A program made the translations under genes and the position numbers. From a virus (Duplodnaviria > Caudoviricetes): DNA of 25,235 bases. This document shows positions 2,572-25,235 of this stretch, piece by piece. The notes below the pieces were generated by a model that ran no database searches, was not told the DNA's origin, and worked only from the letters and a program-made list of their open reading frames with translations. Within the stretch, counting starts at the first letter, position 1. Each line of letters opens with the position of its first letter. The DNA lies in IMG/VR virus record IMGVR_UViG_3300017777_001407, positions 1 to 25,235 of that record; one strand, written 5' to 3'.

Positions 2572-3459
2572 ATGGTAAATATTGATAAAACAAATCTCAA
2601 ACAAAAGCACAAGGATGCTGAGATGCACCCAAACCTTCTTGGTTATGTGACTGAGGTTGAACTAATCAAACCGACCTGCGACTTTTTTGTGAATGACGAG
2701 TGTGTGCAGACGGGTTGGCGAAGGGACGACTCAGGTAATACTGAAGACTACAAGCAGATATATCGTGTCAATGTCAGAGAAGATGGCGAGACCATCGGGT
2801 TCTTGTCTATCGTAAGACAGTATCGCAATGGTGCTAACGAAGATGTGTTCGGTGTGGGTTCGTTTCGTATTAACAAGTCACGAGGTAGAGGTGATGAGAC
2901 AACGACCAAGCACTTGAAGGTTGCCTTGCGTAATGTCAAGAAGTTGATGGTAGGTAGGGACTACACCGAGTTAGCCGATCTTATTAAACATAATGTGGCT
3001 AACTCAATCCATAGTCTTATTCATCATACTAAAAACCATGTCAAGTGGGGGATTGAGCAAGAGGAGTTGGCAATAGACTATGCTCTTCTTGCATACCACG
3101 CAAGAAACAATGGGATGGATAGCGTGGTGCTACCTGCTAACGAGAAGAAGTATGGTCGTAGAAAAGAACTTGATAAAGAAATTGCTAAGTATATTGAGGT
3201 GCAAACTTTGCATGACATGATTGCCAAGAAGCAAGGGTATGGTGTGCAAACTTTTTCAAATGGTTCTTATGCGGTATATAACTTTAGCAACAACAGCATA
3301 AAGAAGTATAAGACTACGGAAGAACTACCAAGCGACATAATGATCCGACTACCCATGTTCAAGGTCATGCAAATGGAAGAAGTAAATGTTGCATTTGGTT
3401 GTATGGTAAAGGCGGACATGTATTTCATCGTAAGTGGTGAACTAAAGATGGAGTCCTGA
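2572..3459 (+). CDS. hypothetical phage protein
   Basis: 295-aa ORF starting 1 nt after the upstream stop; no recognisable motif. Confidence 0.75.
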   Translation: MVNIDKTNLKQKHKDAEMHPNLLGYVTEVELIKPTCDFFVNDECVQTGWRRDDSGNTEDYKQIYRVNVREDGETIGFLSIVRQYRNGANEDVFGVGSFRINKSRGRGDETTTKHLKVALRNVKKLMVGRDYTELADLIKHNVANSIHSLIHHTKNHVKWGIEQEELAIDYALLAYHARNNGMDSVVLPANEKKYGRRKELDKEIAKYIEVQTLHDMIAKKQGYGVQTFSNGSYAVYNFSNNSIKKYKTTEELPSDIMIRLPMFKVMQMEEVNVAFGCMVKADMYFIVSGELKMES

Positions 3460-3465
3460 TATACT
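3457..3465 (+). promoter_or_regulatory. extended -10 sigma70-type promoter
   Basis: TG-A-TATACT. The predicted start near 3471 coincides with the 5' end of the first hairpin. Confidence 0.55.
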
Positions 3466-3470
3466 ATTTA

Positions 3471-3651
3471 GCGAACTGTTCTCCTTGAATTAGTTCGTTT
3501 GTAATGCCGTGAGTATTGCCTAACAGATGTGATCTCATGGCGTCACCGCAAGGTGAGCATCTCCCCAACGCAAGTAGGATGCGGAATCTGTTTTAGCCTA
3601 CAAAAGTTTTGTTCATATCAGTTCCTAGCCCCTCTTCGGAGGGGCTTTTTT
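3471..3651 (+). ncRNA. candidate structured small RNA (about 180 nt)
   Basis: Bounded by promoter and terminator. Stems 3470-3478/3491-3499, 3504-3513/3534-3543, CACC-GCAA-GGTG 3544-3555 and 3557-3562/3577-3582, plus a pseudoknot AACAGAT 3522-3528 / ATCTGTT 3586-3592. Confidence 0.6.
3627..3651 (+). terminator. Rho-independent terminator
   Basis: AGCCCCTC-TTCG-GAGGGGCT followed by a T tract. Confidence 0.92.
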
Positions 3652-3653
3652 AT

Positions 3654-3690
3654 TGTGCACATTTCAAGATCGGGTCTTTATTTGTGCACA
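3654..3690. repeat. tandem palindromes TGTGCACA (putative operators)
   Basis: TGTGCACA at 3654-3661 and 3683-3690, with a third copy at 1660-1667. Confidence 0.5.
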
Positions 3691-3726
3691 TAGGGTAAGT
3701 CCTAATAAAAATAATTTACCAAGCAC

Positions 3727-3754
3727 TTGCTTTTCTTTGGCGACATACTATACT
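3727..3754 (+). promoter_or_regulatory. putative sigma70 promoter of the replication operon
   Basis: TTGCTT 3727-3732, 16-nt spacer, TATACT 3749-3754, with AT-rich sequence upstream. Confidence 0.5.
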
Positions 3755-3788
3755 GTGTCAATAAGTAGTAAATAAACAAGGAAAACAA

Positions 3789-4091
3789 ATGACGCCTGAA
3801 GCGAAAGTTAAGGCATCGGTAGTCAAGATACTCAAAGACTACGGTGTCTATTATTTCTTCCCTGCCACCCACGGCTATGGTCGTAGCGGTGTGCCCGATA
3901 TTATATGTTGCTACATGGGTGCGTTTATTGCCATCGAGTGCAAGACCATCAAGGGCAAACTAACTGCATTGCAATAGCGAGAGATACTACGGATAAGGCG
4001 AGCAGGCGGTCAGTCTTTTGTAGTCAACGAAGATTTGCTTGACGACTTGAAATTATATTTTGCGTCCTTTGACGAAGATGGGCGGGGCTAA
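3789..4091 (+). CDS. VRR-NUC domain nuclease interrupted by one in-frame TAG (3975-3977); readthrough, nonsense allele or sequence error
   Basis: PE..VK, GYGRSGVPDII, AIECK and TALQ precede the TAG. After it the same frame continues REILRIRRAGGQSFVVNE...DEDGRG to TAA 4089-4091, the expected VRR-NUC C-terminus (100 codons in total). Confidence 0.8.
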
Positions 4092-8493: not shown

Positions 8494-8663
8494 TAGTCAC
8501 CATACTTAATCTATTCGCTTTGTTTGTCGCTACCTGTGCGGTGCTGATCTTTGCCGTAGTCTTTGCGTTCTTCTTGTTCATTATGTATGCCTGTATTCAC
8601 ATTGGCTGGAGAGAGATTAAAGGGATGCCGTTGTCTGAGCTATGGGAGAGGATTCAGAAATGA
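8490..8663 (+). CDS. 57-aa membrane protein (absent from the ORF track)
   Basis: MIVTILNLFALFVATCAVLIFAVVFAFFLFIMYACIHIGWREIKGMPLSELWERIQK; ATGA overlaps at both ends fill the gap exactly. Confidence 0.7.
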   Translation: MIVTILNLFALFVATCAVLIFAVVFAFFLFIMYACIHIGWREIKGMPLSELWERIQK

Positions 8664-9298
8664 CATTCCTAGTTGCTAACATCCCACCCGTTAAATGCTT
8701 TGTGCGTAAAGAGTTTCTTTATAACCATGAGAAGGGGCATGGAGAACTAGAGCCTTGTGTGTGGATGACTGCCAAGGCAATCAAGGGTCAAGCCTTCCGT
8801 ATCGAGTCTATGCTAACTAACTACGGTGCGCTTTACGACAAGCTACCAATCCATGCGTATGTGTGGAAAGAAGTAGCCGAGCCGTTGCCGTTAGACCATC
8901 TACAAATATGGGACTGCCTATCGTATGACATGGCGGTGATTGAGAAATCTAATTTAAGAGGACTCAAGGTTAAGTTCTTTGGCAAGGACAAGCAGTTTCA
9001 TTTTGGCAATTACCTGTTCACCATTGACTTTGCCTCGCCCGAATCCAACAGACTAGATACTAGTTTTAGCGAGGGTGTTGAGGAACATAAGTCTTACAAC
9101 TTTATTAAGTTAGATAACGGGCAGTTTGCCTGCCAACCCAATAACCGATGCCTTTGGTACGATGTATCGCTCGTACCTGCTGTTTTAAAGACCCCTGATT
9201 TTCGTATACCTACTGAGGTATATAGCGTTGAGAACCACGCTAAGTGGAGTGCTAAAGATGAATGGTTTTATAACTTTGAAGAGATTAAAAAGGAGTAG
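8660..9298 (+). CDS. conserved hypothetical phage protein
   Basis: ATGA-coupled start at 8660 (MTFLVANIPP); motifs GALYDKLP, QIWDC, HKS and LDNGQFACQPNNR. Confidence 0.8.
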   Translation: MTFLVANIPPVKCFVRKEFLYNHEKGHGELEPCVWMTAKAIKGQAFRIESMLTNYGALYDKLPIHAYVWKEVAEPLPLDHLQIWDCLSYDMAVIEKSNLRGLKVKFFGKDKQFHFGNYLFTIDFASPESNRLDTSFSEGVEEHKSYNFIKLDNGQFACQPNNRCLWYDVSLVPAVLKTPDFRIPTEVYSVENHAKWSAKDEWFYNFEEIKKE

Positions 9299-9301
9299 TG
9301 A

Positions 9302-10075
9302 ATGTTAGAAAATGTAGAAGCAATAGAACCAAAGAAGCCCGCTAAATTATTTGTAGCTACACCAATGTATGGTGGGCTATGCACAGGCGGTTACACCATG
9401 GGTATCTTAGAGTGTGTGCAAACGTTTATGCCCCATCAAATCCAAATGTATTACTCGTACATGATGAATGAGTCTTTGATTACTCGTGCTCGTAATGGCA
9501 TGGCATATGATTTCATGCAGTCAGACGCAACACATCTGATGTTTATTGATGCAGACATTAGCTTTAAACCTGCTGACATTGTGCGTATGGTCAAAGCCGA
9601 CAAAGATATTATCTGTGGATTGTACCCAAAGAAAGAAATTAACTGGAAGTTAGTACACGATGCGGTCAAGCAAGGTGTGGACTACAAAGACTTGGGTAAT
9701 TACACAGGATCGTTTGTGGTTAACTTAGTAGGCGGTGTACACGAAACAGTAGGCAACATCAACGAACCCATGGAGATTGATAACGGCGGTACAGGATTCA
9801 TGCTGATTAAGCGTAATGTTTTTGATACTTTAAAACCATTAGTGCCGACTTATACCAACGACATGATCTTGATTGTAGATAAGAACCCAGTTAAGAAGAT
9901 TATTCACGAGTTCTTTGATACCAGCATTGATGAAGAGTCTAACCGATTGCTTTCAGAAGACTACCACTTCTGTAAGATTGCTCGCAAAGCTGGCTTCAAA
10001 GTATATGCCGCACCTTGGGCGAATCTAACCCATAGCGGGACTTACAACTTTAGCGGTCAACTACCAAGGGGATAA
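9302..10075 (+). CDS. GT-A fold (GT2-like) glycosyltransferase
   Basis: VATPMYGG, ESLITRARN, DxD in FIDADI, GTGFMLIKR and SEDYHFC; SD AAGGAG. Confidence 0.8.
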   Translation: MLENVEAIEPKKPAKLFVATPMYGGLCTGGYTMGILECVQTFMPHQIQMYYSYMMNESLITRARNGMAYDFMQSDATHLMFIDADISFKPADIVRMVKADKDIICGLYPKKEINWKLVHDAVKQGVDYKDLGNYTGSFVVNLVGGVHETVGNINEPMEIDNGGTGFMLIKRNVFDTLKPLVPTYTNDMILIVDKNPVKKIIHEFFDTSIDEESNRLLSEDYHFCKIARKAGFKVYAAPWANLTHSGTYNFSGQLPRG

Positions 10076-10076
10076 C

Positions 10077-10592
10077 ATGGACATAAGGGATGCTTTTGTT
10101 ATATCTGATGTACCAGATCATCAAAATTTAAAGCAAAAAATACTTGATGGGATTAAAGAAATGGGTATACATAGCTCAATAACTAGAACCATTAGCTTAT
10201 GTAACACCGATTGGGAGCTAAATCCAAACTACGTACGTCCATATTTTCCAATAGTACAACCATTGTTTGAAGACCAAAATAAAAAAATATGTAGTCTTTA
10301 CACTTTTGAAACAACCGCAGTGGTAAAAAATTTTTGGTTCCAACAATATGCTTTTGGAGATTATCACAACTGGCACCTGCATGATAATTGCATGTACTCA
10401 AGTGTTTACTATGTTGAATTACCTGAAGAAGGTTCTAAAACTACGTTTAACTTTTTAGGTAAAGAGTTTGAAATGGACGTAAAAGAAGGGCAAATTGTTT
10501 CGTCGCCAAGTATGCTTTTGCATTGTTCAAAATCAAATAAAAGCAAAAAGACAAAAACTATTATTGCTTTTAATACTGATATAAAAACATAG
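10077..10592 (+). CDS. putative 2OG-Fe(II) oxygenase
   Basis: HNWHLH..CMYSSVYYV, EGQIV..PSMLLH and KTIIAFN give a double-stranded beta-helix oxygenase pattern. Confidence 0.75.
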   Translation: MDIRDAFVISDVPDHQNLKQKILDGIKEMGIHSSITRTISLCNTDWELNPNYVRPYFPIVQPLFEDQNKKICSLYTFETTAVVKNFWFQQYAFGDYHNWHLHDNCMYSSVYYVELPEEGSKTTFNFLGKEFEMDVKEGQIVSSPSMLLHCSKSNKSKKTKTIIAFNTDIKT

Positions 10593-10601
10593 GGAGTAAA
10601 A

Positions 10602-11060
10602 ATGTTTAACATAACTGATCGGGGTAAGCCACAAGTATTTTTTGGTCTATGGGGAGATTTACCTACATGGTCAGAAATACTTGAGGATTTAGAACATAAC
10701 GTGTTTGAGGGTTTTGAAACAAAAGCGCTAGGCTATCTTGGTTTTGTTACCCACAGAGGGGAACGAATACCTTCAGTGTTAAAAATTAAACAAGAGATAC
10801 AAAAATTAGACCCAACTGCACCGTGTTCAGCACATATTTACATTAGTTTATTTTCTAAAAGCCAAACTTTTGGTAGACACAAAGATACCTCAGATGTATT
10901 TTTTATTCAGGCTTTGGGGCAAACAGGTTGGGCAATAGAAGATGATGAAGTAAAACAAGTTACGTTGTCTCCTGGAGACATGCTTTACATACCAAAACAA
11001 ATTTATCACACCCCCTACCCAAAATCACCAAGGGTTGGTTTATCTATTGGATTTGACTAA
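10602..11060 (+). CDS. JmjC/cupin-4-like 2OG oxygenase
   Basis: FGRHKD..DVFFIQ..G...W, LSPGDMLYIPK..YH and RVGLSIG (HxD...H triad). Confidence 0.8.
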   Translation: MFNITDRGKPQVFFGLWGDLPTWSEILEDLEHNVFEGFETKALGYLGFVTHRGERIPSVLKIKQEIQKLDPTAPCSAHIYISLFSKSQTFGRHKDTSDVFFIQALGQTGWAIEDDEVKQVTLSPGDMLYIPKQIYHTPYPKSPRVGLSIGFD

Positions 11061-11071
11061 AGGAAAAATAA

Positions 11072-11803
11072 ATGTTACCTAATTGTGAACTAGTAAAAGT
11101 AGACGGCACACAGTTCCTTGTGTTCAAAGGGCAAGACTTAATATCAACCCATTTAAAACAAGAACTGTACGAAAACGACATACATCAACTAAGCCTTAAG
11201 TTATTAATGGATGCACCTGAAGGAGTGGTGCTAGACATTGGTGCAAACCTAGGCACGTTTTGTATACCCCTTGCTAAAAAAGCATCAAAGCATACATATC
11301 ATGCCTTTGAGCCACAACGGATAATACATTACCAATTATGTGCCAATACGTTTATTAACGGGCTAGATAATGTTCATTGCCATAACTTTGGACTATCGGA
11401 TAAAGAAGAACGGATGGTACTTACCATGCCTGACTACGCTAATGAAGGCAACATTGGTGCGTTTAGCATGGACAAAGAAGTTCGTAAGAATGACTACGAG
11501 TGTAAAACCGAGGGTGTCAAAGAACCATTAGTAGTATTTACCTTGGACTCAGGTGCACACAAAAACGTACGCTTAATTAAAATTGACGTAGAAGGTCACG
11601 AACTAGAAGTAATTAAGGGTGGTATCAAAACCATCAAGGCAAACAACTACCCACCAATTATCTTTGAAGCATGGACGTGGAAGCCATGGTTTGAGCCCAA
11701 GCGCAAAGCATTGCTTGAATACTTAAAGGGTCACGGCTACGAGATACAACAGCTAGGGCAGAACAACTTAGCACAACACCCTAAATATAAGGAAACAAAA
11801 TGA
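11072..11803 (+). CDS. FkbM-family SAM-dependent methyltransferase
   Basis: VLDIGANLG, AFEPQ, LIKIDVEGHELEVIKG and PPIIFE. Confidence 0.9.
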   Translation: MLPNCELVKVDGTQFLVFKGQDLISTHLKQELYENDIHQLSLKLLMDAPEGVVLDIGANLGTFCIPLAKKASKHTYHAFEPQRIIHYQLCANTFINGLDNVHCHNFGLSDKEERMVLTMPDYANEGNIGAFSMDKEVRKNDYECKTEGVKEPLVVFTLDSGAHKNVRLIKIDVEGHELEVIKGGIKTIKANNYPPIIFEAWTWKPWFEPKRKALLEYLKGHGYEIQQLGQNNLAQHPKYKETK

Positions 11804-14436: not shown

Positions 14437-15319
14437 CTTATTTAATAATCAACTACCCGACTATCTTAAGGAAGTCGAACTTGATGATGTAACCAAAGCC
14501 CTATCAGGTGGCGGTGGCTCACAAATTAAACGCATTGCGCTTGGCAATAATAAGTTTGTGCTTAAAGTGGATGGTACAGAAGTATCTAAGACCAACACCA
14601 GCAAGTTAGAAGTTGTTATTGTTAACGCCTCTAAGCACGTATCAAGAACTTTCTATGCTAAAGCATGGGATCCAAAAGCTGATGCTGCACCACCTGATTG
14701 CTGGTCTAATGACGGTGATAAGCCTGATGCGTCTATTAAGTCACCACAATCAGCAGCATGCGCTAACTGCCCACAAGATATTAATGGGTCAGGTCAGGGC
14801 AATACCAAAGCATGTCGTAAGAACCGCCGTATTGCAGTAGCTTTGGCGTCTGATTTAGATGGCGATGTTTATCAAATGACATTGCAATCCAAGTCTATTT
14901 TCTATGACATGAAAGACCCCGGTGATTTAGAGCACATGCCATTTAACCAATACGCTAAATACGTTGGCTCACAAGGCTACAACTTAAATAGCTTGGTTAC
15001 TGAGATGCGCTTTGATGAAGACTCAACAGTTGGTAAGTTGTTCTTCAAACCGGTGCGATTCTTAGAGCGCCATGAATGGGAGCAAGCCAAGAAACTTGGT
15101 GAAACTCAAGCTGCTAAGAGCGCAGTTACTATGACAATTGCACAAGCAGACGGTATTAAACCTAAGCTAGCTGCGCCAACAGCAAAGGCAGAGGTAGCCA
15201 AAGTTGAAGCGGAATCGATCTTTGAGCCTAAGAAGCGTGAAGAGAAAAAGGCTGAGCCGACTGCTAAACGAGACTTAAAAGCCGTGATGAGCGGATGGTC
15301 CACTGACGAAGAAGCATGA
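14423..15319 (+). CDS. putative ssDNA-binding/annealing protein with Cys4 motif
   Basis: PDCWSNDG..PD...CANCP...GSG...KAC, Ala/Lys-rich linker and acidic tail WSTDEEA; lies between helicase and primase. Confidence 0.6.
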   Translation: MSNVALFNNQLPDYLKEVELDDVTKALSGGGGSQIKRIALGNNKFVLKVDGTEVSKTNTSKLEVVIVNASKHVSRTFYAKAWDPKADAAPPDCWSNDGDKPDASIKSPQSAACANCPQDINGSGQGNTKACRKNRRIAVALASDLDGDVYQMTLQSKSIFYDMKDPGDLEHMPFNQYAKYVGSQGYNLNSLVTEMRFDEDSTVGKLFFKPVRFLERHEWEQAKKLGETQAAKSAVTMTIAQADGIKPKLAAPTAKAEVAKVEAESIFEPKKREEKKAEPTAKRDLKAVMSGWSTDEEA

Positions 15320-15543
15320 GTCTAAGAGGTTATAGTCTCCGTCTTGTTGAAGCAATAAAAGCTGGCAACCCTCGGCACCCGGGGGTTCGCCTTGGCAAGC
15401 ATTGCATCGCAAAGGGTATACCAGTATCACAGATGGCTAAGAAATTTGGCGTCTCCCGTATGACTATGTACACATGGTTTACGGGTGGTGGTACCCCACG
15501 CAAAGACAAGATTGAACTAATAGAGAAAATATTAAGCAGTTAA
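15316..15543 (+). CDS. Cro/XRE-like helix-turn-helix protein
   Basis: VSQMAKKFGVSRMTMYTWFTG..PR. Confidence 0.8.
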   Translation: MSLRGYSLRLVEAIKAGNPRHPGVRLGKHCIAKGIPVSQMAKKFGVSRMTMYTWFTGGGTPRKDKIELIEKILSS

Positions 15544-15550
15544 CGTCTAC

Positions 15551-15619
15551 GGGGACAGCTAGCTCGACGGAGCGAATCGGGATATTGCCGAATCCCTTGC
15601 TGTCCTTATTTTTTCGGTG
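15551..15619 (+). promoter_or_regulatory. structured three-way-junction RNA leader upstream of primase-helicase
   Basis: P1 15551-15559/15599-15607; P2 GCTC-GACG-GAGC 15562-15573; P3 GGGAT/ATCCC 15579-15596; followed by a T-rich tract and the SD. Confidence 0.6.
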
Positions 15620-18645: not shown

Positions 18646-18715
18646 GTAGCCCATGGCTACTTCATTTATTTCCTTGTTGGTAACAACTTTAGCCCCGCTT
18701 CGGCGGGGTCTTTTT
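18646..18715 (+). ncRNA. candidate small RNA (about 70 nt) with exposed anti-SD/anti-AUG segment
   Basis: Hairpin GTAGCC-CAT-GGCTAC, unpaired TTCATTTATTTCCTT, hairpin GTTG-GTAA-CAAC, then the terminator. Confidence 0.5.
18692..18715 (+). terminator. Rho-independent terminator between converging genes
   Basis: GCCCCGC-TTCG-GCGGGGT followed by CTTTTT. Confidence 0.88.
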
Positions 18716-21700
18716 AGTCCTCTGGATCCCCGTAGTCGTTCATGGCTGATAGCTGCCCAATAAGCTTCTTATTAAGGGACATACCACCAGTAATCTCAGC
18801 CAAACCACGTTGCTTATATCGTGTAGTTACCGAGCGACTTAAGTTTGTGCCTAATATAGAAACACCAGGATTAGCAGCATTAAACTTAATTATGGTTTCA
18901 AGCGTCTCTTCAATTAGGTCGGAATCGTTATTATCAACCCCCATAAAGAACGCATCTAACAAAGACTGCCTACGGTTAAGGATGTTTTGTTCCGCCGTCT
19001 TCATCTCAATATTAGACTTCTGGCGTTGAGCAAGGCGCTCTGGAGAGAACCCAATAAACTGCAATCCTGCTTCGTAGCCCGAAACATCCCCTAGGAGCTC
19101 ATTTCCCTTAAGGGTTGTGGCTCGCCCCTCAGAAGCTAAACGAATGCCTTTTAGAGCGTTTTTAATAACGGCTGGGGTGCCTGTTTCAAAAGCTCTTTCG
19201 ATATAGCCATCGTTATATTGTTTAACTGCCTCGGCACCGTTAATAACCAAGCCTGCTGAAGGGCCTAGTAGGTTAATAAACATGTTTTGCACGGCTGTAA
19301 CTTCATCAGAACTCTTACGGGTATCTCTGTACCACATGTCATTTAAGCTTAAACGGCTGGCTATATCTGCACCAAGCGCCTGTGATACCACCCCACGGGA
19401 AATAGAGTCGCCTACAAAGCCGCCAAAGGTCTCGTTGCACCAGTTTTTAAACCAGTTATCAAAGTCCCATTCTTCTTCGTCGTCGCCAAATACAGCTTGC
19501 ATAGCGTTAATAACACCAGACACAGCCCACCATAAGGGTAAACCCGAAGCTCCAGCAAATACTGCAGTTAATCCCAAGGTGCCAAGTAGTCTGTTACGAG
19601 CTTCTACTTGTATATCCTTCATGTATTGATCGACTGCTGCGTCTAATTCATTTGCAGTTAAAGGCTCGGCATCAGGAGTATTTATCTTACGACTTCCTTT
19701 TATTTGGTCGGCTATGTCTTTGTACATGCCAAGCCTAGGATCGTTTGGATCTATCTTTGCTATTTCTTTGCGCTGATCAGCTGTAAGAATGCTTCTTTGC
19801 CATTCGTACAAACTTCTAGCCAATAGGTAGGTCATTTGCTGGGCAAATTGCTTAAACTGAAGAATAACTTTAGCGTAGGCACTTTGAAAATAACGTGGTT
19901 TATTCAATGTTGAGTAATCAAACATTGATTTGTAGGTTAGTTCTTTGGTAACTTCAATTGCTTTATCAAACGCAGCTTGATCTGTATAGCCGTCGGCTTT
20001 AGCTTTATCGTAAGCTAAGTCAAATACGCTCATACCCACAACTTCACGGTTAAATTTCTCAGCGCCGTGAAACAAACCACTTAGCACTTTCATAACACTT
20101 TGGGTTTTACCAGTGTACAAATTAGAAGGGGCTTCAGCCATGCCAACTATGTCGTGTGATAACGTAATGTCAAACAAACCATCAACTACAAGTTTGTCGT
20201 AAGCACGCTGCTGCAATTCGGTTAATATGCCGGCTTTATTGTTTAATGAAGGAAAAGTTGCATTACCATCTTTATCTTTAAATCCAGCGCCAGCAAACTT
20301 CTTGGCAAGCGCACTCATTTTTGCGGCAGTTTTTGCATTACCAAATCTAGCACCTACTACAGGCAAGCCGACCGCTACAACACCTAGCATGTTTACCAAT
20401 GCTGAAGCAGGTGAAGTCATGAACCAAATAAAGGAAGTATTAGATAGAAACCCTGGTATTCCGCCAGTGTCCGTAGGATTCATTATGTATTCCATACGTT
20501 TTTCTAGCTCGGCTACATACTCAGCATCAATCTTGCCTTCTCTAGTATCTTTTTCTTTAAGCCCTTGTCTAGCTGTAGCTAGGTCATCAAACATCCCACG
20601 ACTATGTTTATATCGAGAATGCTGATAAGACATATGGAACGCCGACGACGTAAACGCACGCAGCATGTCTAGTTCCATACCAGCAACACCTTTACGGTTC
20701 ATAAACATCTTGCGGACGCTTTGATCTGGCAGGGTTAAGAAATAAAGCTGCTCTAAGTTTTCTTCAATATTAGCCTTAAGCGCTTCATTAGTCTCGCCTT
20801 TGCCTGACTTAATAATATTTTTGAGTTCTTCTAAGAACGTAAAGTCACGCATATTATCTGAGGCAAGTTCTTGTATAGAGTTACGAGCTTTGACTTCGCT
20901 ACCAGTAAGTTTGCGATTAAGGTCTTTTTCTAGTTCAGCTTTACGCTCGGCTAAAAACGCATTGCGTTGTGCAGCGCTCTCAAACAAATAAAACTCTTTT
21001 TTCTTGCCATCAAAGAACTGAACCGAGAACCTACCAAAACGACGTATTGGGAAATACACGTCTACCTTATGCTTAGAAAAATGCTCTCTTAATCGCTTAA
21101 CTTCAGGGTTATTCTCTAACTCTGCGGTTTCTAGGGCGTACTTAGGATCTTTAATATCTGCAGTGGTACGGTACTGCGCCTTCTTATTTTCAACGGCGTT
21201 GTTAATATAGTCGGCCAAGCTCTGCTTATAAAAGTCTCGCACTTCTCTATATATAGCCTGCCCTTCTGCGCCAATTTCTTGCCAGGCTTTGTCAACTTCA
21301 GGGCGCTGAGTCTTACCTTTGTCCGGATCTTTATTTAACGTAAACAAATTACCCTGTTTATCTGTATAAGGTGGGCGATCATCAAGCGTAACGTCAATCA
21401 TTAACTTGTTAAGTATTATTGCTAGCTTAGGATTGTCTTTCTGCCACTTTTGCCAGCGTAGTGCAATCTTCCTAGTCTTTTCAAGCCGTTGATTACGGTC
21501 GTCAAGCATACCCTCTACTTTTGCAATAAAGGTTCTAAACTGCGGGATTCTGCTACCAGCCAAATCATTTAACTGACGCAGGGTAAATCCGCCTAAATAG
21601 TACTTACGGGCCGTATCGTCAACGTTCTCAAGAAAATCCCCCATGCCTAGCTTTAGCATGTTCCAAGTTGGACGACCAAAAAATCTTCTATCTATGGTGT

Positions 21701-24700
21701 TCAAGAAGTTGGGATTAGCAGGCATATTGCCTTTTAATATTGATTTACCTCTAGCGGGGAAGGCACGCATATTAGCAGTAGTAGCTGGGGGAGCTTGCAA
21801 TATGATGTTAGCGTTGGCAATTGTGTAGCCAAGCACGTTGTCTAAACCAAAGAGTTTTGCAATAAATTTAGTAAATGCGTCCCATAAGCTTACTTTGCCA
21901 CCTTCATATCTAAGGTCTCGTAACAGATTTTGGAACTCTTCATTAGCAAAAGCTTCAGATACAAACTCGTCTACGCTTTTAAAACCGTACTCTTCAAACT
22001 CAGGCTTGCCTTCGTATTTCTTTTTAGCGTACTCAAATAGTTTATTTAGCTCAGTTACAGCGTCTTGTTGTTGCTTAGTTAAATTATTAAAGTTCTCTGG
22101 ATCTAAGGCATACATTGTTCCTGCATGAGTTACTTCATGTAGCAACGCCCAAGTGCTCATCCCACCTTTGCTTGAATTTAAATTAATAGTGTCTAAATAG
22201 CCACCGTAATACACACCAGCAGAGTCTATATGGCTTACTGCGTCTCGATACGCTTGAAGCACGGTATTAAATTGCCCAATAATAGGGGGTATTACATCTT
22301 TCATGTACTCTAGTCGGCCAGAGGCAATCGCTTCTAAACCTTCTAAATTGCCACGGAATACATCTTCTGTATCTAATGGCTGGTCAAACTTATAGTGTTT
22401 AATAAAGTCTGGACCCCAATCATACGTTCTGAGAGTATTTAAAAAAGTGGGTTTAGCTCGTTTGGCATTGTACTCAACTAATTCTTTAGCCAGGCGAACT
22501 TGTTGATTAATTACTACGTCAGTTTGTAAATTTAAACTTTTTAGTCTTCTTGCAAGATTAGTTATGAATTTATTGTAAGAACCAACTACTGATTCTCTAG
22601 TTAATAACTCAAGCGCTCCGTTAAGGTCCCCAGCTTCTATGCGAGCCTGAATTGCAGGATGCATTGGGTAAAACAACTTAGGATCAAGCGTTTCAGTCTT
22701 GCTAGGTGGTTTATACCGTTTAAGTCCTGCATCAAATACAAAACCTTCAGCTTTACCAGTAGGAGCACGGCTAATATTTTGGATGTATTTACGTGCTACA
22801 CCACCTTCTTTTTTAAGTTTGTCGGCCCGCTCTATGGCAGCGTCAGCATCCCTAACCATCTTTTGATACGCAGCTACTGTAGCGTCAAAGCGTTTTAGTT
22901 CTTTTGCAGGTAAGTTATCTTCGACCCATTTCTTAAATAATGTAGCCTGCGCTTTGTTTTGATCTTTAAATACTACGCCAGAATAAGTGTTGTCTTTTAT
23001 ACCAAGGTCAAACGCAGCCGAGCGCATAGCCAAACTATAAGTTGGGTAGCCGTTTCTGCCCCCAAAGTAAGCGTATGCAGCATTTTCTTCTGGCGTTCTT
23101 TGACTTGCTGGGATTCCGTCTAATATAGTTAAAGCCCTTTGAATCTGTTGGGCAGTGTATGGCTCCATGTTATTAAGAGCTTCTGTAGCCTCAAACGGCA
23201 ATACAGTCCCCTCTATACCAAGACTTGCACGCTCGTATTTGTTTAAAGCCTCTTTTAGCTGGGTACTAAAATCGTTAATGCCCCGTACAGTATTTAAATT
23301 AGGCGCAGAAGTTAACGACGCTAATGCTTCAGACTGGGATTTAACGTCCATACCAGCAAAACGCTGGGATAACCCAGAGGTCAAAGCCTCACGCTCTTTT
23401 GGTGCAATACTTAAGCTATCAAAGAACTGACGCAAAAAGTTTAGCCGCTTGTCTAGTTCTGGTCCAGCAAGTGGTGCGCTAACATCAGGACCTTTACCTT
23501 CTGCTTCAAATCTGGCTACTTCTTTACCAGTCTTAAACCCAAGAAACTCAGCAACATCATCAAGCATGTTGTTTACTTTGCTTCTAAAAGAAACAGATTG
23601 TGTTGGGTTAGCACTGCTAGACTTTAGGCTATTAAAGAAGGCGGTCAACGGTTTTAATGGGTTGTCGGCCGAGCCAATCAGCATCATCTGAGCACGTTCG
23701 CCTTCAGGTATAGCTTCAATACCTTTGGTTTCTGGTACATACCCAGCTGGTGCAGTTAGTTCAAATCCATCCCCAGTTGTGTCTAATGTACGTTTGGTAT
23801 CGTCACTAGGCTCTTCAAACTCAAACCCCATTTGTCCAGGAGCTCTTGCTGCTTTGATTTTGCCCTGTCCAGCAAGTTCAGCTTTTGCCTGCCGTACACT
23901 TTGCAGTTCACTATCTACTTGACCAAACTGTTGTTCTGCCCCGCCAATACGCTCATCGGTTGGGTCAACCTCACTGATCTCTCTTATGTAGCCTTTAATG
24001 TTATTGAGTTGGCTAACTAAAGCAGCTTCTCTTGTGTCTAGCTCATTTAGTTGATTGTTGAGTTCCTCATCTCGTTTTGCAGCATCTGCAGCAAGTCGAT
24101 TAGCTCTATCCAAGTCTGTTTCGGAAGGTTCTCCAGCTCCGGCGTCAGTTGCACCTTTTCTGAGTTTCTCTTCGTCAGATAAAGAAACGCCAGGCTCACC
24201 TGCTCCGGCGTCAGATTTAGTACCGTAGTCTCTTGCTTCATCTATAGCACTCCTGCCGGGCTCCCCAGCTTTTTGTAATTGACGTTCACGTCGGCCTTCT
24301 AAGTATGCACCAGCACCAGAACCTGCCAAACCAAACGAACCGCCACCTACTGCACCACGTACAGAAGACTCAATGATGCGATTAAATTCTTTGCTTCCCC
24401 AGATTTCTGGGTTTTCTTGGACAAACTTCTCGGCTGTAATACTGATTGCTTCTTGTGCACCCTCAGTCAAACCTTCTGTTGCAGCACTACCAATTGTAGT
24501 ACCAACGACTCGTCTAGCCACTTCTGAGGGCATACCTGATTTCTCAAGTATTTTTTCTACAACTCCAGCTTTTGCATTTGGACCAAGTTGTTTAAGAATA
24601 GCGACTGGCAATACTGAATCTAGTGCGGCTGATACAGAACCAGCTAAAAGAGCTGCACCGGTCTCCATTTGACCAGTCTCTTCATATATGTTTTGGAATA

Positions 24701-25235
24701 CTTCAGGAGCGTTAAGCGCATAAGAACCAAGAAAGGTTCCAGCAAGTTGCCCACGACCAGCACCTTCCGCCGTCTTCATTGCTGCGTATCTAGCTCCAGC
24801 TTCTGTAGCTTCACGCTCGGCTAACTTTTTAGCGGCTGCGCTAGCAGCCATACGCCCACCGACTGCGCCAATTCCCGCACCGGGTATCAAAGCCGTAGCC
24901 ATACCAGGTATTTGTTCTGCGACTGTTTCTAGTGCAAAGGGTATATAGTCGCCTATGCCTTTGACGTCGGATAAAGACTTATAGCGGGCACCGTACTTTT
25001 GCTCAATTTCTTTTTGAGTCTGCGCAGCTTCTTCCATCTGCTTAGCTGCATACTCGTCAGCGCCAACAGCTTTAGCCGCCATAGCAGGTAATACATCAGC
25101 AAGCAAAGACCCAGTTTGTTTAGCGCCACGTACAATACCACGCCCCATCATGCTTAGTACACCAGTATCCTGTGTAGGTTCTGGTTCAGGCAAACCAAGC
25201 TCAGCAGCCGTGTACTCTTTTTTGCTGGATGTTAA
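18714..25235 (-). CDS. very large virion/ejection-type polyvalent protein (PLxRFG-like motif, zincin HExxH), 5'-truncated
   Basis: Frame stays open from 25193 to the window edge. Gly/Ala-rich N-terminal part, LLHEVTH...DEFVSEAF, YFPIRRFG and hydrophobic C-terminal helices. Confidence 0.8.
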   Translation of the reverse strand, partial: LTSSKKEYTAAELGLPEPEPTQDTGVLSMMGRGIVRGAKQTGSLLADVLPAMAAKAVGADEYAAKQMEEAAQTQKEIEQKYGARYKSLSDVKGIGDYIPFALETVAEQIPGMATALIPGAGIGAVGGRMAASAAAKKLAEREATEAGARYAAMKTAEGAGRGQLAGTFLGSYALNAPEVFQNIYEETGQMETGAALLAGSVSAALDSVLPVAILKQLGPNAKAGVVEKILEKSGMPSEVARRVVGTTIGSAATEGLTEGAQEAISITAEKFVQENPEIWGSKEFNRIIESSVRGAVGGGSFGLAGSGAGAYLEGRRERQLQKAGEPGRSAIDEARDYGTKSDAGAGEPGVSLSDEEKLRKGATDAGAGEPSETDLDRANRLAADAAKRDEELNNQLNELDTREAALVSQLNNIKGYIREISEVDPTDERIGGAEQQFGQVDSELQSVRQAKAELAGQGKIKAARAPGQMGFEFEEPSDDTKRTLDTTGDGFELTAPAGYVPETKGIEAIPEGERAQMMLIGSADNPLKPLTAFFNSLKSSSANPTQSVSFRSKVNNMLDDVAEFLGFKTGKEVARFEAEGKGPDVSAPLAGPELDKRLNFLRQFFDSLSIAPKEREALTSGLSQRFAGMDVKSQSEALASLTSAPNLNTVRGINDFSTQLKEALNKYERASLGIEGTVLPFEATEALNNMEPYTAQQIQRALTILDGIPASQRTPEENAAYAYFGGRNGYPTYSLAMRSAAFDLGIKDNTYSGVVFKDQNKAQATLFKKWVEDNLPAKELKRFDATVAAYQKMVRDADAAIERADKLKKEGGVARKYIQNISRAPTGKAEGFVFDAGLKRYKPPSKTETLDPKLFYPMHPAIQARIEAGDLNGALELLTRESVVGSYNKFITNLARRLKSLNLQTDVVINQQVRLAKELVEYNAKRAKPTFLNTLRTYDWGPDFIKHYKFDQPLDTEDVFRGNLEGLEAIASGRLEYMKDVIPPIIGQFNTVLQAYRDAVSHIDSAGVYYGGYLDTINLNSSKGGMSTWALLHEVTHAGTMYALDPENFNNLTKQQQDAVTELNKLFEYAKKKYEGKPEFEEYGFKSVDEFVSEAFANEEFQNLLRDLRYEGGKVSLWDAFTKFIAKLFGLDNVLGYTIANANIILQAPPATTANMRAFPARGKSILKGNMPANPNFLNTIDRRFFGRPTWNMLKLGMGDFLENVDDTARKYYLGGFTLRQLNDLAGSRIPQFRTFIAKVEGMLDDRNQRLEKTRKIALRWQKWQKDNPKLAIILNKLMIDVTLDDRPPYTDKQGNLFTLNKDPDKGKTQRPEVDKAWQEIGAEGQAIYREVRDFYKQSLADYINNAVENKKAQYRTTADIKDPKYALETAELENNPEVKRLREHFSKHKVDVYFPIRRFGRFSVQFFDGKKKEFYLFESAAQRNAFLAERKAELEKDLNRKLTGSEVKARNSIQELASDNMRDFTFLEELKNIIKSGKGETNEALKANIEENLEQLYFLTLPDQSVRKMFMNRKGVAGMELDMLRAFTSSAFHMSYQHSRYKHSRGMFDDLATARQGLKEKDTREGKIDAEYVAELEKRMEYIMNPTDTGGIPGFLSNTSFIWFMTSPASALVNMLGVVAVGLPVVGARFGNAKTAAKMSALAKKFAGAGFKDKDGNATFPSLNNKAGILTELQQRAYDKLVVDGLFDITLSHDIVGMAEAPSNLYTGKTQSVMKVLSGLFHGAEKFNREVVGMSVFDLAYDKAKADGYTDQAAFDKAIEVTKELTYKSMFDYSTLNKPRYFQSAYAKVILQFKQFAQQMTYLLARSLYEWQRSILTADQRKEIAKIDPNDPRLGMYKDIADQIKGSRKINTPDAEPLTANELDAAVDQYMKDIQVEARNRLLGTLGLTAVFAGASGLPLWWAVSGVINAMQAVFGDDEEEWDFDNWFKNWCNETFGGFVGDSISRGVVSQALGADIASRLSLNDMWYRDTRKSSDEVTAVQNMFINLLGPSAGLVINGAEAVKQYNDGYIERAFETGTPAVIKNALKGIRLASEGRATTLKGNELLGDVSGYEAGLQFIGFSPERLAQRQKSNIEMKTAEQNILNRRQSLLDAFFMGVDNNDSDLIEETLETIIKFNAANPGVSILGTNLSRSVTTRYKQRGLAEITGGMSLNKKLIGQLSAMNDYGDPED

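Follow-up and report, generated by a model that had tools for sequence, protein, structure and literature searches.

A family of phage RNAs with a predicted double-pseudoknot core

The intergenic region between the early and replication genes of an uncultured tailed phage carries a member of a conserved structured RNA family, the predicted core of which is based upon two pseudoknots. The family is real and apparently undescribed; the function that we propose for it is unproven. At least 69 distinct cores were collected by scans of sequence collections, and these fall into two subtypes, A (25, including that studied here) and B (44). The window, by which we mean the whole stretch of DNA that was analysed, is a linear virus record of 25,235 bases with a completeness of about 40%. 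Its genes encode a DUF2201 protein, two unknown early proteins, a VRR-NUC-type nuclease, a family-A DNA polymerase, an SNF2 helicase, a DUF927 primase and a giant LPD39 protein. The RNA is located between the stop codon of the ORF at 2572–3459 and a promoter-like site of the nuclease/polymerase module, and its elements are itemized in Table 1. The + strand of 3457–3651 folds with z = −4.32 relative to shuffled sequences (z = −3.20 without the terminator), compared with z = −1.97 for the − strand. The original prediction of a structured RNA on the + strand is supported by covariation, by G-U pairs and, within the subtype of the window, by conserved promoter and terminator signals.

Table 1. Elements of the RNA and its surroundings, with positions in the window
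Feature	Position	Strand	Remarks
Extended −10 box TG-A-TATACT (putative promoter)	3457–3465	+	Overlaps the stop codon of the ORF 2572–3459; predicted start near 3471–3473
5′ leader hairpin	3471–3498	+	From the fold; accessory; anti-Shine-Dalgarno tract UUCUCCUUG at 3479–3487
5′ domain	3504–3560	+	Three-way junction P1/P2/P3
P1	3504–3507/3557–3560	+	Closes the three-way junction
P2	3508–3513/3534–3539 and 3515–3519/3529–3533, loop 3520–3528	+	Loop-closing pairs 96.2% paired
P3	3543–3556	+	Variable tetraloop; 80.7% paired, four two-sided pairs
Linker R-Y-C-Y	3559–3563	+	Conserved, pyrimidine, between the two domains; found in 67/77 rows
Pseudoknot 1	3522/3523–3528 with 3586–3591/3592	+	Covariation
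P4 hairpin, CGCA/UGCG, loop A-GUAGG-A	3569–3583 (3569–3572/3580–3583)	+	All cells paired in subtype A
Pseudoknot 2, H-type	GUAGG 3574–3578 with CCUAC 3597–3601	+	Covariation
Variable 3′ tail	3602–3626	+	Accessory; anti-AUG CAU 3614–3616, anti-Shine-Dalgarno UUCCU 3622–3626
Intrinsic terminator	3627–3651 (stem 3627–3646)	+	CUUCGG loop, U run
Separate promoter-like site TTGCTT, 16 nt, TATACT	3727–3754	+	For the VRR-NUC/DNA polymerase module; outside the RNA

The core that is shared by the two subtypes starts at its 5′ end with P2, whose loop has the form C-N-N-RYA(K)AU and is closed by the G that follows, and then continues through a helix into the R-Y-C-Y linker. After this the strand forms P4, with 4–5 bp and a loop comprising an A and 5–7 pairing bases, and passes by way of N-A into the 3′ strand of pseudoknot 1. 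A further 2–6 nt lead to the 3′ strand of pseudoknot 2, which is formed as G6/C6 or GAG5/C5UC in subtype B. Few unpaired nucleotides are invariant, these being the loop C, the linker C, the L1 A and the A that precedes the 3′ strand of pseudoknot 1. Several of the core pairs are constant in the identity of their bases, beyond the requirement for pairing alone. The linker is a possible tertiary strand; by eye no triple-helix covariation was found between it and either pseudoknot.

In the alignment of 26 subtype-A sequences the revised structure has 90.3% of its cells paired, exceeding all 500 shuffles and compared with 25–38% for slid controls, where the controls ignore relatedness and three cells are lost to alignment gaps. 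Pseudoknot 1, P4 and pseudoknot 2 are each 100% paired in these sequences, with two, one and one two-sided pairs respectively, and in pseudoknot 2 an A-U pair is replaced by G-C in three of the 26. The pairing of P1 in homologues was read by eye, the MAFFT register being poor in that region (61.5%). Across 52 members three types of pair are found at each of positions 2 and 3 of P4, and pseudoknot 2 exhibits UA/GC and AU/GU/GC switches; this set was selected by complementarity in pseudoknot 1 (with one chance row dropped), and is therefore circular with respect to that element. In an unbiased test the variable positions of pseudoknot 1 pair in all 68 loci that possess pseudoknot 2, the free positions giving four Watson–Crick combinations and two wobble cases. 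Seven loci in the final scan lack pseudoknot 2, and six of these fail to pair at the pseudoknot-1 positions.

Pseudoknot 1 had been foreseen as the pairing of AACAGAT (3522–3528) with ATCTGTT (3586–3592), and it is both complementary and covarying; covariation is present in the stems as well. The original structure had just this one pseudoknot, and missed the second together with the antisense-like arms described below. It placed a hairpin at 3557–3582 with an AC-GCAA-GT cap, for which there is no two-sided change in the 26 subtype-A sequences; there is disruption of each of the two outer pairs in 11 sequences, and of the A-U cap pair in 18. The alternative, P4 with pseudoknot 2, has no unpaired cell among those counted. 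The inner pairs of the proposed 10-bp stem are retained as P2, while its outer four are discarded since homologues pair that 5′ strand with 3557–3560. The GCAA hairpin at 3543–3556 exists, but its GNRA loop is not a signature, as homologues have GCAA, GTAA, TAAC, TTAT or AATT in its place, or relatives have none.

The subtypes share the core and differ in the wiring of the 5′ domain. In subtype A the helix preceding the linker uses the 5′ strand, so closing the three-way junction with the variable hairpin. In subtype B the corresponding helix is a long hairpin that forms 3′ of P2, and a third pseudoknot arises through pairing of the hairpin loop with the 5′ end of the RNA. For 26 members this has a mean of 6.65 Watson–Crick pairs, compared with 5.24 on swapping partners (maximum 5.73 in 200). 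The relationship between the two is a non-circular rewiring in the sense used in the accessible part of PMC10085705, the motifs of which come nearly all from RNA-only contigs. One subtype-B locus (L116, 1470–1530) has the middle of the RNA deleted from the P2 loop to P4 with both pseudoknot strands kept, and is either a minimal form that occurs naturally or an artefact of assembly.

The carriers are uncultured tailed phages and phage-like contigs, in which the RNA is mostly found directly 5′ of the VRR-NUC/DNA polymerase A module, with one copy per carrier among those searched whole. The first copies were obtained via relatives of the upstream protein (3 loci) and of the polymerase (69 loci), and a compensatory change in pseudoknot 1 was already present among them. 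Scanning viral contigs with the motif gave 20 loci, all with the full architecture, and a scan for the G6/C6 variant gave 50, comprising 46 genuine members (one with an internal deletion) and four chance matches. At least 118 loci were found in metagenomes, with both pseudoknot motifs in at least 29, and the final scan (in which two positions of pseudoknot 1 were left free) gave 75. The single match in a genome collection is a 5.3-kb contig in an archaeal bin (L162, CAIQQL010000047.1) that has the same phage gene order and the RNA, and is probably a misbinned viral contig. In a blastn search with 3440–3700, the matches among 50,697 cultured phage records were mainly to the terminator, with no record covering 80% of the query. 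A near-sequence-free descriptor returned 12 distinct matches in 1.88 Mb, all true members; it missed one member, which was caught by a looser version along with five chance matches in 2.49 Mb. No third subtype was found using two covariance models (of which R2 is weak, having six pairs only) and the sequence-free descriptor. The first pattern scan was based upon the GCAA hairpin, and none of its 17 loci was a homologue. That scan did catch, by chance, an intergenic element that is unrelated and conserved, has several hairpins and a stem resembling a terminator, and is located at about 1450–1600 in L004, L006, L009, L010, L011 and L019; it may be another phage structured RNA.

In a quick polymerase tree subtype A forms one clade of 22 rows with a support of 99, and the RNA is present in all 14 of the rows with enough upstream DNA. 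Subtype B occurs in lineages at 58–61% identity that are interspersed with non-carriers, and the RNA is absent from four near-complete relatives at about 50% that have the same replication genes. The gene upstream of the RNA differs between the subtypes. None of the phage proteins is both adjacent to the RNA and confined to carriers. A 314-aa early protein with no Pfam family (L282:12463–13404) is present in carriers of both subtypes and not in four non-carriers (E 1e-4), a distribution that may reflect phylogeny only. The window polymerase has at best 35–37% identity to those of cultured phages (Rhizobium RHph_TM phages and Pseudomonas KPP25), so that no host can be assigned from them.

Comparison with Rfam 15 gave no match at the gathering score for the window, in agreement with the original description of the RNA as an uncharacterised pseudoknotted phage ncRNA. 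With E up to 10, the best matches of 3300–3850 are driven by the terminator and lie far below the cut-off, and nothing was found for two divergent members (a subtype B and a short subtype A). Nor was anything found for 15 related loci, eight of them carriers. A search of the literature, with most subscription journals outside its scope, found no description of this RNA. Three of the six text supplements of PMC10690425 gave no match, and that partly accessible study could include the motif among its candidates. PMC5737381 and a bioRxiv article on Minerva are, in their accessible parts, not relevant to the description of a double-pseudoknot RNA.

The RNA follows directly behind a stop codon in most members. 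The TG-A-TATACT box and the leader hairpin are both found where they had been predicted, and the box is taken to function as a promoter; it is absent from the list generated by a σ70 scan because of its poor −35 box. All 28 distinct subtype-A leaders have a TAnnnT box 34–58 nt before the P2 loop, in the form TATACT in 20 and TG-extended in 18, noting that chance alone often produces a bare TAnnnT and that one lineage falls outside the leader pattern. The terminator is present as had been proposed, and one follows the RNA in all 24 subtype-A members with enough DNA, with a nuclease gene within 450 nt. Judged by sequence signals, subtype A therefore has the promoter of its own and intrinsic terminator expected of a base-pairing sRNA. 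The 43 subtype-B members are more varied in context; 12 have a terminator, 15 a promoter with no terminator, and 16 a Shine-Dalgarno sequence and start codon within 50 nt, and the nuclease gene is within 450 nt in 29. The idea of a stand-alone RNA holds for subtype A, but in subtype B a terminator is missing behind the RNA in 31 of 43. A riboswitch or 5′ leader was rejected on the basis of the subtype-A terminators and the mixed subtype-B contexts. The promoter-like site at 3727–3754 was read from the sequence and is not listed by the consensus scan. Four listed sequencing runs, represented by contigs only with shares of 0.08–0.20, show no peak of depth on the RNA. A contig from a freshwater RNA library spans 3458–3712 with a depth of 2.9, no deeper than its neighbours, and the runs examined contained no contig covering a subtype-B RNA.

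The core of the window RNA is flanked by two arms with the character of antisense sequences. The leader hairpin gives way to a short leader in some relatives; its UUCUCCUUG tract is perfectly complementary to CAAGGAGAA (1670–1678), the Shine-Dalgarno region of the early gene that starts at 1683. Every one of the 28 subtype-A leaders has a CU-rich pentamer, the set of five pentamers having been chosen after seeing the data. On the 3′ side a tail of 25–35 nt lies between pseudoknot 2 and the terminator in 14 of 20 distinct subtype-A 3′ ends and is absent in six; none was seen in subtype B. All 14 distinct tails are complementary to a Shine-Dalgarno sequence followed after 5–10 nt by ATG, where 0.27 would be expected from shuffles, although the 14 represent about three lineages only. 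Tails have been swapped between near-identical phages. A seed directly before the terminator is the usual layout of base-pairing sRNAs. On the minus strand the tails would open short reading frames, but these differ in frame and length, so a conserved minus-strand peptide is unlikely; a leftward promoter, by which the tail would become a genuine start site on that strand, was by eye not conserved. Searches for targets within the window and two related genomes (G001 and G002) gave best duplexes no better than the genome-wide background. A site of −26.0 kcal/mol at an early gene start in G001 is equalled by others at −25 to −27. An exact-match scan of viral contigs for targets yielded six loci, including one copy of the RNA itself and two located inside a protein-coding frame.

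For the window RNA we tentatively prefer a stable trans-acting RNA that represses translation starts through antisense arms carried on the core. Subtype A would be made by host RNA polymerase from its own promoter as a discrete RNA of about 180 nt. Subtype B would be cut out of operon transcripts, as suggested by the base pairing of both of its ends (the third pairing at the 5′ end and pseudoknot 2 at the 3′ end). The core would confer stability by resisting nucleases, and perhaps bind a host protein, while the initiation of translation would be blocked by pairing of the single-stranded arms to ribosome-binding sites. The repressed mRNAs are probably those of the host, since no target in the phage genomes scores above background. 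The constancy of the core while the flanking genes vary fits an RNA acting in trans. The optional nature of the arms is the main weakness of this antisense reading; with tails missing from six of 20 subtype-A ends and from subtype B altogether, the arms do not explain the conservation of the core beyond stability. Antisense RNAs of phages include C4 of P1 and P7 and CI of P4. VpdS of VP882 and PreS of lambda are known phage sRNAs that act on host mRNAs and, as described in the accessible part of PMC12197685, resemble the present RNA in being intergenic phage RNAs with their own promoter and terminator and having predicted single-stranded segments for mRNA start regions. The present RNA differs from them in its lack of an Rfam family match, its double-pseudoknot core and its optional, swappable arms; moreover no target was found in its own genome, and no integrase in the 67 of 79 ORFs scanned in a complete relative (G006). 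It would work like the known phage sRNAs yet, as far as that part of the source extends, belongs to none of their families (PMC12197685).

Other readings place the function in the core or in the mRNA. The compact core might be a decoy by shape for a host protein (a nuclease, an RNA chaperone, or a tRNA-handling or defence enzyme), with the arms incidental. This we judge to be on the unlikely side, for although the core alone is universal, its invariant pair identities suggest tertiary or protein contacts, and the contexts resemble those of processed stable RNAs, it leaves the conserved anti-Shine-Dalgarno and anti-AUG tracts unexplained, and no phage protein combines adjacency with restriction to carriers. 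Stacking of P4 and pseudoknot 2 would give about 10–12 bp and a 3′ unpaired A (the base after pseudoknot 2 is A in 56 of 77 rows), and could mimic a tRNA acceptor arm. Pseudoknotted tRNA-like structures are exemplified by the TYMV type, and similarly have a coaxial pseudoknot stack with a 3′ unpaired A and sometimes ACCA (accessible part of PMC12710915). They differ in that ACCA is present here in nine of 77 rows only (the register being ambiguous in 20) and no consensus T-loop or anticodon arm is visible; with ARAGORN reporting no genes, a tRNA, tmRNA or tRNA-like RNA was rejected. A cis-acting element of the operon mRNA, which would obstruct 3′ exonucleases or RNase E scanning or else be a protein-bound translational operator, is unlikely. 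The position just behind a stop codon would suit it, as would the subtype-B members with a promoter and no terminator and the 16 lying within 50 nt of a downstream start; set against this are the terminator, −10 box and separate downstream promoter-like site of subtype A, and a downstream gene that changes in 14 of 43 subtype-B members. Such an operator would tune early relative to replication gene expression in the manner of the T4 gene 32 pseudoknot, which like this RNA has a very short loop 1. That H-type pseudoknot is a known operator for gp32 and is likewise found in a phage replication region, whereas the RNA described here is embedded in a larger two-domain fold with a terminator in subtype A and has no tie to an SSB gene (accessible part of PMC10690425).

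An RNA providing a primer or R-loop for a replication origin at the boundary of the early and replication genes, modelled on ColE1 RNA II or the T7 primary origin, is highly improbable. The RNA is suitably placed for this, before the family-A DNA polymerase module and with palindromes and an AT-rich stretch after it, but in subtype A a strong terminator stands in the way, the G run is taken up by pairing inside the RNA, and the four non-carrier relatives dispense with it. HDV-like and theta ribozymes have the nested order P1-P2-P3-P1.1-P4 with the catalytic C in J4/2; the helix order here is different and there is no Rfam match, so these were rejected. A new class of small self-cleaving ribozyme processing phage operon transcripts is quite unlikely, and of the regulator, decoy and ribozyme that were initially offered it has the least support, the other two remaining candidates. 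In having two pseudoknots and a multistem junction within a core of about 100 nt, and in lying between phage genes, the RNA corresponds to the features by which candidates are picked (accessible parts of PMC10085705 and PMC5737381), and non-circular rewiring has been reported for hammerheads; yet invariant unpaired nucleotides are few, subtype A has its own promoter and terminator, and ten similarly chosen motifs showed no cleavage (PMC10085705, same part). The hammerhead itself, including non-circular permutations, was rejected as the CUGAnGA and GAAA blocks are absent from the A3 and A4 consensus (PMC10085705, same part). The pistol ribozyme, as presented in the accessible part of PMC6154101, has a hairpin-loop pseudoknot of about 6 bp (5–7 bp in pseudoknot 2 here), occurs near phage genes, and similarly has the pseudoknot partner strand coming after another helix strand. 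Unlike pistol, the partner strand here is the loop of an upstream hairpin, and there is no counterpart of the pistol P3, G40-C41-G42 block, purine 32 or G-U cleavage junction (PMC6154101, same part). The bases after pseudoknot 2 begin with A or C and vary, as does the linker before it, so the would-be catalytic residues are not constant. Twister also has a double pseudoknot with a hairpin loop pairing to a 3′ strand, but its pseudoknots T1 and T2 both arise from loop L4 rather than from two different hairpin loops, and its conserved U-A site and general-base G are lacking here (PMC6154101, same part). The dinucleotide preceding pseudoknot 1, the would-be cleavage site, is variously UA, UU, CG, GG or UG.

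Few small RNAs combine two covarying pseudoknots with a multistem junction, and motifs of this kind have often proved to be ribozymes, riboswitches or protein-binding scaffolds. Here such a fold comes in dozens of natural versions (at least 69) with two wirings of the 5′ domain and, as optional additions, arms directed at translation start sites, and at about 100–180 nt is small enough for self-cleavage, probing, structural and reporter tests to be cheap. Should the arms function as predicted, lytic phages would possess in this RNA a programmable repressor of translation, and synthetic sRNAs could be built upon it as a compact and stable scaffold. In its fullest form, which is rather unlikely, the proposal would be of a new phage RNA machine, in which a host-factor-binding or catalytic double-pseudoknot core, existing in two rewired, non-circularly permuted forms, carries exchangeable antisense arms that shut down host translation starts in lytic infection.

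No nuclease or reverse transcriptase linked to the RNA (as in an omega RNA with TnpB/IscB, a retron or CRISPR) was found among 27 window proteins, nor any match to integrase, reverse transcriptase or Cas/TnpB in the scanned ORFs of G006; an RNA-guided or reverse transcriptase-linked system was rejected on these grounds and because the upstream gene is not the same in the two subtypes. Some further features of the window lie outside the RNA. The VRR-NUC-type nuclease gene (3789–4091) has an in-frame TAG at 3975–3977, where relatives have a Glu or Asp codon; the G at 3975 is also read in contigs of three runs, and the TAG is a private mutation or sequencing error, not recoding. On the 3′ side of the terminator are paired TGTGCACA palindromes (3654–3690), with a related copy at 1634–1667 before the early gene at 1683. 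Relatives have other inverted repeats at this site followed by a TAGG-N-CCTA motif, and the palindromes likely serve a phage regulator as operators; the HTH protein at 15316–15543 is one candidate. An Rfam int-alpA match at 15552–15619 (37.1 bits with a cut-off of 35.8) is located directly before the DUF927 primase gene. The giant protein comprises at least 2,159 aa (18714–25235, − strand), with an LPD39 domain and DarB-like antirestriction matches. Finally, a cluster of modification-type genes at 8642–11803 encodes an Anp1-like glycosyltransferase, a 2OG-Fe(II) oxygenase, a JmjC/cupin protein and an FkbM methyltransferase.
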